From Escherichia coli (lineage in GTDB: Bacteria > Pseudomonadota > Gammaproteobacteria > Enterobacterales > Enterobacteriaceae), in assembly GCF_003334815.1 (NCBI RefSeq), contig NZ_QOWO01000001.1: DNA of 64,000 nucleotides; one strand, written 5' to 3'. Made by a program: the position numbers and the translations under genes. This document shows, piece after piece, positions 25,559 through 27,928 of the stretch. The notes beneath the pieces were generated by a model. It was not told the origin of the DNA. It saw only the letters and a list, made by a program, of their open reading frames with translations, and did not search any database. Position 1 is the first letter of the stretch; each line of letters opens with the position of its first letter.

Positions 25559-26317
25559 TTAAGTTAAACTTCGGCGGTCAGAAACGATGGCAACCAGAGA
25601 AACCGCCTTCTGTGCCTGTTCCAGCACTTCGCTGTAGGGCGCTCTGGAATCAATCTCAAGAATTTTTGTGCCGTTATAGCCAATCTTCGACATGACACCG
25701 ATTTTGTCCTGCAGCTCGGCATAGTCATGGTCAGGCTTGCGGGAGATGGCAGTCTCAATATCAATGCCCAGGCGAATAATTAATTCCGGGCGATATTGCG
25801 CCATTTGTTGGTATAAACGCCGTTCGCGCTGCGCCAGAAACATGCTGATTTTCCCGGTCGCACGTTCGACGCCAATCCCCGGTCCATCATAATAAAAGCC
25901 CGAAATTTCAGCCTGCGGGAAGCGATCGCTGACCACCAGAACGCCACTTTGCGCCAGTCGCTGAACCTTGCGTAGATTCGCCATTCTTCGCAGCGAGAAG
26001 CAGTACATAATCACCGCCGCCCATAGCGCCGGAGATTTGGTTTTCATGCTTTGGGTTTTCGAGGATTTGGCCGCCAGTCGCCGTTCCAGCCAGACGCCAA
26101 CTAACGGCAATCGTTTGATTTTGTCGCCGTCTTCGCCGGAGAGCAGCCCCAGATAGCGCCGCTCGGTTTGCCAGTGTTGTTGCAGCGATTTCACCAGGTC
26201 GGTGGTCAGTGTGGATTTACCGGTGCCATCACACCCGACCACCGCAATCAGCCCCGGAATGTAGTTGGGCTGCGGCGCGGTTGTACTATTAACAGTTTGA
26301 GTTTGTAGTGCATCCAT
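25559..26317 (-). CDS. yghR: P-loop ATP-binding protein (predicted kinase)
   Basis: 252 aa, Walker A GCDGTGKST; paralogous to the next two ORFs. Confidence 0.8.
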   Translation of the reverse strand: MDALQTQTVNSTTAPQPNYIPGLIAVVGCDGTGKSTLTTDLVKSLQQHWQTERRYLGLLSGEDGDKIKRLPLVGVWLERRLAAKSSKTQSMKTKSPALWAAVIMYCFSLRRMANLRKVQRLAQSGVLVVSDRFPQAEISGFYYDGPGIGVERATGKISMFLAQRERRLYQQMAQYRPELIIRLGIDIETAISRKPDHDYAELQDKIGVMSKIGYNGTKILEIDSRAPYSEVLEQAQKAVSLVAIVSDRRSLT

Positions 26318-26348
26318 TCGTTAAATCATCCCCTATCCATTTTGGTGA

Positions 26349-27062
26349 TCAGGAAAGCGCGGCGTGAATTGCGCGTAGTGACGCTTGCAGAATTTCATCG
26401 GCGGGGTGTCGCCCATCCAGTTCAAGGATCTTTGCGCCATTGAATGTCAGTTGCGGCGTAACGGCGATTTTTTCCTGTAACGCTGCCAGTTGGTGGTCAG
26501 GTTTACGCGCAAACGCGGTTTGTTCATCAATGCCAAGACGAATCAACAATACGGGCAAATAAGATGCCATCCATTGGTACAGCTTCAGCTCGCGCTGCCT
26601 TAACATTTTTATCCAACCGTTACCGCCCGTGGTTTTTGCCAATTGCGGGCCATCAAAGCGAAACCCCGGCACTTCAACCTGCGGGTAGCGGTCGGTGATG
26701 AGCAGAAAGCCTTGCTGGCTTTTACACAACATTTTGCGAAACTTGTACGCCCGCCAGCAGGAAAGCAGATAGATAACCAGTGCAGTAATATTGCCAGGCG
26801 GTGTTGAGGGCTTTTCGTGCACATGTGCCGCTTTACTTCGCAGATAACGCCCAAAAGGTGCGCCAATAACAGGGAGCTGTGAAATCCATTCGCCAATTCG
26901 CCCGGACGATTGCCCGAGATAAATGTGTTCTGTTGGCATTCTTGCTGCCAGTTCATTTACCAGGCTTGCCGTGAGGGTCGATTTACCTGAACCATCACAT
27001 CCTACAATGGCAATAACACGCACTGGCGTGGAATTAATTATTGACATATTACGTTGATTCAC
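26349..27062 (-). CDS. yghS: P-loop ATP-binding protein (predicted kinase)
   Basis: 237 aa, Walker A GCDGSGKST; shares DRYPQ and ARKPDH motifs with YghR and YghT. Confidence 0.8.
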   Translation of the reverse strand: MNQRNMSIINSTPVRVIAIVGCDGSGKSTLTASLVNELAARMPTEHIYLGQSSGRIGEWISQLPVIGAPFGRYLRSKAAHVHEKPSTPPGNITALVIYLLSCWRAYKFRKMLCKSQQGFLLITDRYPQVEVPGFRFDGPQLAKTTGGNGWIKMLRQRELKLYQWMASYLPVLLIRLGIDEQTAFARKPDHQLAALQEKIAVTPQLTFNGAKILELDGRHPADEILQASLRAIHAALS

Positions 27063-27235
27063 GAAAAACCCGGCAGTAAATAATGTATTGAATATTACGT
27101 GGTCCGTGCTCAGAATATCCGTTCAACCTTATTGTGACAATGGTTAATTGTGACATTGACCTGAATTACGCTTTCATAAAAACATATTAACCAAATAAAT
27201 ATTTTTAATGGATATTTAAATTAAAGGATATATTC

Positions 27236-27928
27236 ATGCAGTCAATAACACCTCCATTAATTGCCGTTATTGGTAGCGATGGTTCAGGCAAGTCAACGGT
27301 GTGTGAACATCTTATTACCGTTGTCGAAAAATATGGTGCTGCCGAAAGAGTTCATTTAGGAAAACAGGCCGGAAATGTCGGTCGTGCAGTGACAAAATTA
27401 CCGTTGATGGGAAAATCCTTACATAAAACAATTGAACGAAATCAGGTGAAAACAGCAAAAAAATTGCCTGGACCAGTTCCGGCGCTGGTAATTACAGCGT
27501 TTGTCGCCCGTCGCTTACTGCGCTTTCGTCATATGCTTGCCTGTCGTCGTCGCGGGTTAATTGTTCTAACCGACCGTTATCCTCAGGACCAAATTCCTGG
27601 CGCTTACGATGGTACGGTGTTCCCACCTAACGTTGAAGGTGGTCGTTTTGTCTCATGGCTGGCAAGCCAGGAACGTAAAGCGTTTCACTGGATGGCGAGC
27701 CATAAGCCTGATCTGGTCATCAAACTCAATGTTGACCTTGAAGTTGCCTGTGCACGTAAACCCGACCATAAACGGGAATCGCTGGCGAGGAAGATTGCCA
27801 TAACGCCACAGTTAACCTTTGGTGGTGCACAACTGGTTGATATCGATGCCAATCAGCCACTGGAACAGGTGTTGGTTGATGCAGAAAAAGCGATTACGGA
27901 TTTTATGACCGCGCGTGGTTATCACTAG
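27236..27928 (+). CDS. yghT: P-loop ATP-binding protein (predicted kinase)
   Basis: 230 aa, Walker [10 protein letters not shown]; divergent from yghS. Confidence 0.8.

Follow-up and report, generated by a model that had tools for sequence, protein, structure and literature searches.

The question raised by this locus is which reaction is carried out by YghR, YghS, and YghT, three P-loop proteins encoded next to lipid genes and a flippase gene in a 64,000-nucleotide stretch of Escherichia coli DNA (RefSeq assembly GCF_003334815.1, contig NZ_QOWO01000001.1; hereafter, the window). An earlier note, made from the sequence alone, had proposed that they are small-molecule kinases that could phosphorylate or otherwise modify the lipid product. 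In the present analysis, the three proteins emerged as the best candidates for the addition of phosphate to the E. coli sphingolipid. The three open reading frames were found exactly at 25559-27928, where that note had placed them, and their products are identical to the YghR, YghS, and YghT proteins of E. coli.

yghR, 25559..26317, minus strand: 252 aa, predicted R-type thymidylate-kinase-like P-loop kinase; Walker A at 26210-26236, DRFPQ at 25913-25927, SRKPDH at 25727-25744 (all minus strand)
yghS, 26349..27062, minus strand: 237 aa, GTG start, predicted S-type kinase, modelled in this analysis; Walker A at 26976-27002, DRYPQ at 26679-26693, ARKPDH at 26493-26510 (all minus strand)
yghT, 27236..27928, plus strand: 230 aa, predicted T-type kinase, divergent from yghS; Walker A at 27272-27298, DRYPQ at 27572-27586, ARKPDH at 27752-27769 (all plus strand)

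Fold and family of YghR, YghS, and YghT

Pairwise BLASTP confirmed that the three proteins are paralogues. YghR and YghS share 44% identity (E=1e-63), YghS and YghT 36% (E=2e-53), and YghR and YghT 34% (E=6e-48), and each alignment spans approximately 217-220 residues, which is nearly the full length. When the translations were searched with regular expressions, the Walker A motif GxDGxGKST was present in all three, as had been noted. The DRYPQ and ARKPDH motifs, which had been ascribed to all three, occur literally in YghS and YghT, whereas YghR reads DRFPQ and SRKPDH. A fourth common motif, LGxx[SA]GxxG, was absent from the earlier note. The description of the genes as tandem holds for yghS and yghR, which are co-directional and 31 nt apart, but not for yghT, which diverges from them across a 173-nt spacer.

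Searches of Pfam, NCBIfam, and PDB with one or three of the proteins gave only P-loop-level or marginal thymidylate kinase matches. The i-E values for Pfam Thymidylate_kin (PF02223) were 0.013-0.43; the scores against the dTMP kinase equivalog TIGR00041 were 32.3, 24.3, and 25.8 bits for the three proteins (cut-off, 83.25), and those against NF005923 were 17-26 bits (cut-off, 193). A family profile built from 38 diverse members was needed to reach significance, and this profile matched thymidylate kinases in PDB at E=3.5e-12 to 1e-9. The alignment spans the P-loop GxDGxGK[ST]T, the helix with the DRY motif, and the beta4/LID segment, in which [AS]RKPDH provides the LID arginine; the P-loop of A. 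aeolicus thymidylate kinase is the same GxDGSGK[ST]T. The motif set of thymidylate kinases (acidic P-loop, DR[YH], and LID arginine) thus has its counterparts in GxDGxGKST, DR[YF]PQ, and [AS]RKPDH, and the P-loop lysine, the DRx arginine, and the LID arginine are invariant across the 38 members.

An alignment-based AF2 model of YghS had a mean predicted local distance difference test score (pLDDT) of 90.5 and a predicted TM score of 0.86; it was used in place of a single-sequence AlphaFold model, which was unusable (pLDDT 35). The closest folds to the YghS model were thymidylate kinases, with an identity to the solved enzymes of only 15-22%, and a fold search of AFDB50 returned only uncharacterised relatives auto-named 'Thymidylate kinase'. 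Residues ~45-90 of YghS, between beta2 and the DRY helix, form a family-specific acceptor-side region of ~45 residues (LGxx[SA]GxxG...LPxxG). At the position of the TMP loop of thymidylate kinases (REPGGT / FPxRxT type), LGxx[SA]GxxG carries no arginine, as read from the HMMER sequence alignment only. The earlier note had held that assignment to a nucleotide kinase family would speak against a role in lipid modification. The fold does go to such a family, but membership does not follow, given the scores of 24-32 bits against a cut-off of 83.25 and the family-specific acceptor region. The profile and the model indicate that YghR, YghS, and YghT are a separate family of predicted phosphotransferases with the thymidylate kinase fold, in which the phosphoryl-transfer residues are intact, and are not dTMP kinases.

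In RefSeq (PGAP), 'dTMP kinase' is the name of both YghS and YghT, and YghR is a 'nucleoside/nucleotide kinase family protein'; the UniProt-style name of the three is 'uncharacterized ATP-binding protein'. Because YghS and YghT score only 24-26 bits against TIGR00041 (cut-off, 83.25), the name 'dTMP kinase' in RefSeq and the name 'Thymidylate kinase' in AFDB and UniProt look like systematic over-annotation.

Other assignments were rejected. Matches of the ATP-binding cassette (ABC) ATPase domain ABC_tran (PF00005) cover only the P-loop (YghS 15-40, E 0.013; YghT 8-41, E 0.053), and the ABC signature, Walker B, and Q-loop are absent from all three proteins; the distinction between small-molecule kinases and ABC ATPases drawn in the earlier note was thus upheld, the ABC_tran match amounting to only ~26 P-loop residues at E 0.013-0.05. 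No DAGK_cat match of the kind expected of a DAGK/LCB5-type lipid kinase such as CpgB, YegS, or dhSphK was found in Pfam scans of the three proteins, and adenosine 5'-phosphosulfate kinase was rejected both by domain (PF01583) and by closest fold. Matches to anti-phage defence proteins in PADLOC were weak (13-19 bits, E 2e-4 to 6e-3), and almost none of them extended beyond the P-loop.

Evolution of the paralogues

In a neighbour-joining tree built from 102 kinase domains together with the three E. coli reference proteins, a T clade was resolved, along with S and R clades that are sisters. T, S, and R were all present in beta-, gamma-, and deltaproteobacteria, while sphingomonads, Acetobacteraceae, and Pseudomonas have one T-like copy and a single R/S-like copy. 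In Bombella and Saccharibacter, the T-like and R/S-like domains are fused in one polypeptide, and the metagenomic proteins P0121 and P0122 are also two-domain fusions. The proposal that the genes arose by local duplication is contradicted by these orthologous clades, which are common to several proteobacterial classes; the duplications are ancient, since T-type and R/S-type orthologues are shared across alpha-, beta-, gamma-, and deltaproteobacteria. That both types have been kept since an ancient split speaks for different roles in cooperation, whether as successive steps or as a hetero-oligomer, and against redundancy. The acceptor loops read HLGKQxGNxGR in T and YLGxxSGxxGxxIxxLPxIG in R/S, and these clade-specific signatures are consistent with different acceptors for the two types.

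The sphingolipid locus of E. coli

The window region is 100% identical to many E. coli chromosomes. In the identical stretch of strain G1/2, the RefSeq order begins with glcC and yghO (minus strand). A plus-strand unit follows (fatty acyl-AMP ligase, NAD-dependent epimerase/dehydratase-family protein, acyl carrier protein, and spt), then a minus-strand unit ('lptG', 'lptF', YtfJ-family, hypothetical, 'lipopolysaccharide biosynthesis protein' (yghQ), yghR, and yghS), and at the right end yghT (plus), pitB (minus), and gss (minus). The features of the window around the kinase genes are listed below.

yghO, 14953..16173, minus strand: bCerS-type N-acyltransferase ('aca' in Padilla-Gomez 2022); RefSeq-equivalent start at 16095
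aasR-cerR-acpR-spt, 16463..20556, plus strand: putative ceramide-precursor operon, convergent with the kinase/flippase/Lpt operon
aasR, from 16463, plus strand: fatty acyl-AMP ligase/acyl-acyl carrier protein synthetase
cerR (epi), 18190-19104, plus strand
acpR, 19136-19384, plus strand
spt, 19384-20556, plus strand
Hairpin, 20559..20593: 16-bp, GC-rich, between the convergent ends of spt and lptG2; likely bidirectional terminator
lptG2, 20591..21751, minus strand: LptG paralogue (TIGR04408, 308 bits); RefSeq-equivalent start at 21670, overlapping lptF2 by 4 nt
lptF2, 21667..22737, minus strand: LptF paralogue (TIGR04407, 318 bits)
ytfJ-like, 22768..23331, minus strand: YtfJ-family paralogue (TIGR01626, 212 bits)
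hyp274, 23340..24164, minus strand: orphan 274-aa protein, overlapping the yghQ stop by 1 nt
yghQ, 24164..25513, minus strand: 449-aa MOP-superfamily (Polysacc_synt) flippase, 45 nt downstream of yghR and intact here
yghS/yghT intergenic region, 27063..27235: divergent, AT-rich, 173 nt
Hairpin, 27939..27967: 12-bp, between the convergent ends of yghT and pitB
pitB, 27977-29476, minus strand: phosphate transporter gene, adjoining yghT

The first five lipid genes match the dihydroceramide genes described in E. coli BL21(DE3), namely aasR, epi/cerR, acpR, spt, and the N-acyltransferase gene yghO (Padilla-Gomez et al. 2022, PMC9386255). Therefore, the 'lipid genes' of the earlier note are a bacterial ceramide locus. 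Among the Rhodobacteria compared in that study, the five genes are clustered together only in Caulobacter and E. coli B (PMC9386255).

Along yghS-yghR-yghQ-hyp274-ytfJ-like-lptF2-lptG2, all on the minus strand, the gaps are 31, 45, -1, 8, 30, and -4 nt. A consensus-level scan found a σ70-like site on the minus strand upstream of yghS (27140-27112) and no strong terminator-like site from yghS down to the hairpin at 20559-20593. This packing suggests that the genes from yghS to lptG2 form an operon. The statement that the kinase genes lie beside lipid genes and a flippase gene is thus borne out by gaps of -4 to 45 nt, and the same association was found in many other genera (see below). The RefSeq annotation of the locus contains no DAGK-type ceramide kinase, CDP-alcohol transferase, or glycosyltransferase, and it follows that candidates for head-group enzymes are limited there to the kinases, Hyp274, and the YtfJ-like protein.

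LptF2 and LptG2 exceed the NCBIfam equivalog cut-offs (318 and 308 bits compared with 230 and 240), which is why RefSeq gives the plain names 'lptF' and 'lptG' to these sphingolipid-locus paralogues. Hyp274 had no sequence match in Pfam, NCBIfam, or PDB (in the latter even at E<=10). A large protein database contains 640 homologues. The family has 18 invariant residues, including R88, K92, H105, Q122-D123, H193, R196, and H237-D238. Neither of two assignments of Hyp274 was retained: a split-off NTP_transf_5 domain had an hhalign probability of 1%, and the CHAD domain, suggested by two UniRef names, is an unconfirmed lead with no Pfam or PDB match and an hhalign probability of 0.2% against E. 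coli YgiF.

Conservation of the gene neighbourhood

A profile search of 1.84 billion representative proteins yielded 2150 relatives, of which 1277 had E<=1e-10. A scan across GTDB species, with a single genome for each, then gave 76 loci, and the open reading frames in these were scored with the proteins of the E. coli cluster. Loci from other species with close homologues (>=150 bits) numbered 53, and 24 loci had distant homologues only. A YghQ-like flippase and a Hyp274 homologue were each encoded in 38 of the 53 close-homologue loci, spt with aasR/cerR in 20 (spt within 10 kb), and LptF2/G2 in 14. At least one of YghQ, Hyp274, and spt was found in 46 of the 53; three of the remaining seven loci are short contigs of 3-7 kb. 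None of the 24 distant-homologue loci contained YghQ, Hyp274, spt, or LptF2/G2. When the neighbours in 33 module loci were clustered de novo, only the kinases, Hyp274, and YghQ were near-universal. These results indicate that the kinases, a MOP flippase, and the 274-aa orphan protein constitute a conserved three-part module.

Adjacency to spt was observed in many genera of Enterobacterales, in Luteibacter/Dyella, in two betaproteobacteria (a metagenome-assembled genome and Methylotenera), and in Pseudomonas; in Halioglobus, the module adjoins LptF2/G2. The co-localisation with spt and the ceramide genes is thus conserved in unrelated lineages. Relatives in AFDB came from Zymomonas, Azotobacter, Sphingobium, Novosphingobium, Acetobacter, Gluconobacter, and Pseudomonas. 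The taxa bearing the family largely match the genera with reported sphingolipid genes (PMC11324152, PMC9386255), and the overlap includes Sphingomonadales, Acetobacteraceae, Zymomonas, Azotobacter, Nitrosomonas, and Pseudomonas.

The most informative context for the role of the kinases is a variant found in P. marginalis (L055:7933-13887) and in a Pseudomonas metagenome-assembled genome (L050:3339-8541). In both loci, aasR-cerR-acpR-spt is followed, in this order, by the gene for an ABC half-transporter resembling MsbA/HepA, those for one T-type and one R/S-type kinase, and that for a phosphoethanolamine transferase of the CptA family (NF007933, 807 bits; cut-off, 404). YghQ and Hyp274 are absent from both. 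Here the flippase has been exchanged for a non-homologous one and the kinases still lie beside spt. It is therefore apparent that the kinases stay with spt across flippase replacement. A 236-aa protein is also encoded directly after the two kinases in these loci.

The transferase of these loci would be periplasmic; its characterised relatives CptA/EptC and EptA add phosphoethanolamine to phosphate groups of lipopolysaccharide. PAP2 lipid phosphatases (Pfam PAP2, E=2e-23) adjoin the module in 10 loci (L024, L025, L026, L031, L033, L035, L037, L040, L041, and L049), with one or two per locus, of ~181 and 229 aa, in beta-, gamma-, and deltaproteobacteria and in Commensalibacter. Both kinds of neighbour are understandable if the kinases generate a lipid-bound phosphate.

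Further neighbours were recorded. An LpxO-like aspartyl/asparaginyl beta-hydroxylase (Pfam E=2e-52) is encoded near the sphingolipid genes in L013 (1115-1876), L019, L020, L022, and L031, with Mangrovibacter, Luteibacter/Dyella, and Methylotenera as hosts, and is possibly a 2-hydroxylase of the ceramide acyl chain. Among the fetched loci, pitB adjoins yghT in five (Escherichia, two Pseudocitrobacter, Hafnia, and Citrobacter), which may be functional linkage or plain synteny, and the YtfJ-like protein accompanies the cluster only in Enterobacterales (13 loci).

Outside the close subfamily, roughly one in two of the top 150 representatives whose kinase domain is nearly complete has an N-terminal extension of ~250 aa; this extension matched NTP_transf_5 (PF14907) in three of the 10 examples scanned. 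Two relatives are fused to WzxC-like MOP flippases (P0220 and P0265) and one to a GT4 glycosyltransferase (P0247), and one distant fusion protein is encoded in a Wzx/Wzy cluster together with ATP sulfurylase and sulfotransferase. A MOP flippase lies beside distant fusion-type homologues in only ~3 loci, and thus the link to a flippase does not hold throughout the family beyond the close subfamily. In a published survey of phosphonate clusters, phosphoenolpyruvate (PEP) mutase is flanked by a 'thymidylate kinase' and PF14907. The ancestral theme of the family may have been the phosphoryl or nucleotidyl activation of cell-surface molecules, with the YghRST branch specialised together with YghQ, Hyp274, and the ceramide genes.

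Proposed role and alternative explanations

The reading that we favour, and to which we give about an even chance, is that YghR, YghS, and YghT are cytoplasmic ATP-dependent phosphotransferases that phosphorylate the head group of a ceramide-derived lipid. That the family as a whole is dedicated to the proteobacterial sphingolipid pathway, which is part of this reading, has in our judgement equal chances of being right or wrong. In the proposed scheme, the products of aasR, acpR, spt, yghO, and cerR would supply (dihydro)ceramide, whose head group the soluble kinases would phosphorylate with ATP on the cytoplasmic side of the inner membrane; T-type and R/S-type enzymes would act in successive steps or as a hetero-oligomer. 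YghQ would flip the anionic product, and LptF2G2, presumably powered by LptB as in Caulobacter, would extract it for delivery to the outer membrane. In other taxa, a periplasmic CptA-type phosphoethanolamine transferase or PAP2 phosphatases may edit the phosphate. What we infer is that the proteins act as kinases on the lipid, in the order and with the topology given, and that LptB is used.

What the data show directly is that the three proteins are paralogues with a kinase fold whose catalytic motifs are intact, that their genes are packed in an operon-like manner, that the neighbourhoods are conserved, and that the kinases remain with spt when the flippase is replaced. Several points weigh against the phosphorylation of a ceramide head group. 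The nearest fold acts on nucleotides and not on lipids, and the three proteins have no membrane anchor. Only gene spacing and consensus scans speak for the operon structure. No spt gene lies within 10 kb of the module in Sphingomonadales and Acetobacteraceae, and the link there is co-occurrence in the same taxa only; for Sphingomonadales such as S. wittichii and Z. mobilis, Olea-Ozuna et al. (2024, PMC11324152) describe sphingolipid genes dispersed around the genome. Distant family members are found in Wzx/Wzy polysaccharide or phosphonate contexts. In K-12, the yghS promoter region appears to be silenced by H-NS (see below). Finally, literature searches for yghR/S/T, yghQ, and the BL21 locus tags returned no functional study or assigned function, and no report was found of the structure of the E. 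coli sphingolipid or of its head-group enzymes.

The alternative that survives best, which we regard as unlikely but worth weighing, is that the kinases act on a soluble phosphate or phosphonate head-group precursor or on a nucleotide-like intermediate, converting X-P to X-PP, and that another protein, for example Hyp274, transfers the product to ceramide. Thymidylate kinases, with their DRx motif and acidic P-loop, use a phosphate as the acceptor and convert nucleoside monophosphates to diphosphates, and the same two features in YghR, YghS, and YghT are typical of phosphate-acceptor enzymes. The N-terminal extension of about half of the top representatives, where it is an NTP_transf_5 domain, makes a typical activation pair of kinase and nucleotidyltransferase, and the PEP mutase clusters point in the same direction. 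However, no nucleotidyltransferase is encoded in the modules of E. coli, Luteibacter, or sphingomonads, Hyp274 does not resemble NTP_transf_5 (hhalign, 1%), and the E. coli locus contains no recognisable transferase for a soluble head group.

Somewhat more doubtful is an extended form of the lipid kinase reading, in which the T-type and R/S-type enzymes would act successively, in the manner of thymidylate kinase on its phosphate acceptor, taking ceramide to ceramide phosphate and on to ceramide pyrophosphate or a short oligophosphate. YghQ would then recognise a lipid-linked pyrophosphate, much as Wzx and MurJ do with undecaprenyl pyrophosphate; in the periplasm, PAP2 enzymes would trim the product or CptA-type enzymes would cap it with phosphoethanolamine, and LptF2G2 would export it. 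If so, most E. coli, but not K-12, would make a new class of (pyro)phosphorylated sphingolipid that mimics the phosphates of lipid A.

It is improbable that yghRST, yghQ, and hyp274 serve a Wzx-type undecaprenyl-linked glycan or envelope polymer and that their place beside the sphingolipid genes is a coincidence or a matter of shared regulation. YghQ is a Polysacc_synt/MOP protein, the distant relatives include the fusions to WzxC-like flippases and a GT4 glycosyltransferase and the member of the Wzx/Wzy/sulfotransferase cluster, and the module is not adjacent to spt in alphaproteobacteria, all of which would fit a glycan pathway. Yet the close subfamily has no glycosyltransferase, initiating phosphoglycosyl transferase, or polymerase nearby, spt lies within 10 kb in 20 of the 53 loci, the Pseudomonas kinases follow spt without YghQ, and the module adjoins LptF2/G2 in Halioglobus. 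The sphingolipid locus of Caulobacter also contains a MOP flippase.

Less probable again is that the three proteins lack kinase activity and instead bind nucleotides as partners of YghQ or LptF2G2, whose transport they would energise or gate. The locus has no LptB-like ATPase, fusions of a MOP flippase, NTP_transf_5, and the kinase domain exist, and the module adjoins a flippase gene in 38 of the 53 loci. On the other side stand the missing ABC signature, Walker B, and Q-loop, with an ABC_tran match limited to the P-loop; the invariant DRx and LID arginines, which are features of phosphoryl transfer; and the persistence of the kinases where a self-powered ABC flippase replaces YghQ. MOP transporters are ion-coupled, and LptF2G2 of Caulobacter binds the housekeeping LptB.

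The idea that YghR, YghS, and YghT are genuine dTMP or nucleotide kinases, as their RefSeq names and closest fold would have it, is very improbable in view of the TIGR00041, NF005923, and Pfam scores, the low identity to solved thymidylate kinases, the TMP-loop segment LGxxSGxxG without an aligned arginine (in the sequence alignment only), and the copy number of three to four per locus, invariably amid envelope-lipid genes, unlike the housekeeping tmk.

The locus in K-12 and the E. coli population

The yghRST region was present in 5083 of 5426 complete E. coli genomes, and 4039 of the 5426 matched at least 80% of a 12.4-kb query (window 14000-26400, glcC through yghR, taking in the lipid, Lpt, and flippase genes), which is about three quarters. 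In K-12 MG1655 (L084:4320-6514), IS5 stands in place of aasR, cerR, acpR, spt, lptG2, lptF2, ytfJ-like, hyp274, and the 3' part of yghQ; the window interval compared with this site is 16463-24164. K-12 yghQ is truncated and annotated as a pseudogene, and yghRST is orphaned, so that the kinases of K-12 are stranded remnants of a broken pathway. The loss of the lipid genes to the IS5 deletion would explain why YghR, YghS, and YghT stayed uncharacterised despite decades of K-12 genetics.

In K-12, yghS appears in H-NS regulon data sets and is 3.1-fold up on SlyA overexpression (PMC5797941), and a genomic SELEX peak of FlhDC lies inside the yghS/yghT spacer (PMC9962212). On the H-NS and SlyA data, the locus therefore behaves like a silenced accessory operon. 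Chlorhexidine-adapted K-12 lines repeatedly gained yghQ variants, and deletion of yghQ raised the minimum inhibitory concentration 2-fold (PMC8170033); the gene deleted in that study was the K-12 copy, which was already truncated. In E. coli 52F4 (L001:1-15165), an island takes the place of the left part of the cluster; it carries toxin-antitoxin genes, remnants of CdiA/CdiI, and genes for an autotransporter and an EAL-domain protein. The gene in the Hyp274 position of this strain is annotated 'GspM', probably a mis-annotation.

Comparison with known systems

The genes themselves were already known; the family, the conserved module, and the probable role are new, and three orphan y-genes become specific candidates for the anionic head-group step. 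If the lipid kinase model is true, a major commensal and pathogen would have an outer-membrane lipid not known before, which may be relevant to sensitivity to polymyxin and detergents, as in Caulobacter.

YghR, YghS, and YghT differ from thymidylate kinases (PF02223, TIGR00041) in having the family-specific acceptor region, the envelope-lipid context, and multiple paralogues per locus. Closer to them are the fusions of NTP_transf_5 (PF14907) with a thymidylate-kinase-like domain, whose kinase domains match the YghRST profile at E 1e-30 to 1e-46 and belong to the same family; these proteins keep all of the motifs and in some cases are fused to or lie beside MOP flippases. They differ in their additional N-terminal nucleotidyltransferase domain, in occurring as single copies, and in having no Hyp274, spt, or LptF2G2 neighbours in 24 loci.

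The synthesis and export of bacterial sphingolipids have recently been worked out in Caulobacter, in which anionic ceramide phosphoglycerates are made via the ceramide kinase CpgB together with CpgA, CpgC, and CpgD, and the locus also encodes a MOP 'potential flippase' (CC_1166) and LptF2/G2/C2. According to a 2026 preprint, LptF2/G2 of Caulobacter are essential only if the anionic sphingolipid is made, and they bind the housekeeping LptB. The operon of E. coli UTI89 is shown in Figure 2B of the preprint, whose text does not discuss the P-loop genes.

No homologues of CpgA, CpgB, CpgC, or CpgD are annotated in the E. coli locus. CpgB (CCNA_01218, from Caulobacter crescentus) resembles the proposed role of YghRST, being a cytoplasmic, ATP-dependent enzyme of a sphingolipid locus that makes the lipid anionic before export by LptF2G2. 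Its catalytic domain, however, is of the LCB5/DAGK type with a GGDG motif, its fold is unrelated to that of YghRST, and homology between them was ruled out. A further parallel to the proposed role may be LpxK (tetraacyldisaccharide 4'-kinase of lipid A synthesis), a P-loop kinase whose membrane-lipid substrate is phosphorylated on the cytoplasmic side and only then flipped and exported by Lpt. If the proposed function is right, YghRST would be a non-homologous replacement of CpgB and would provide a second route to phosphorylated ceramides.

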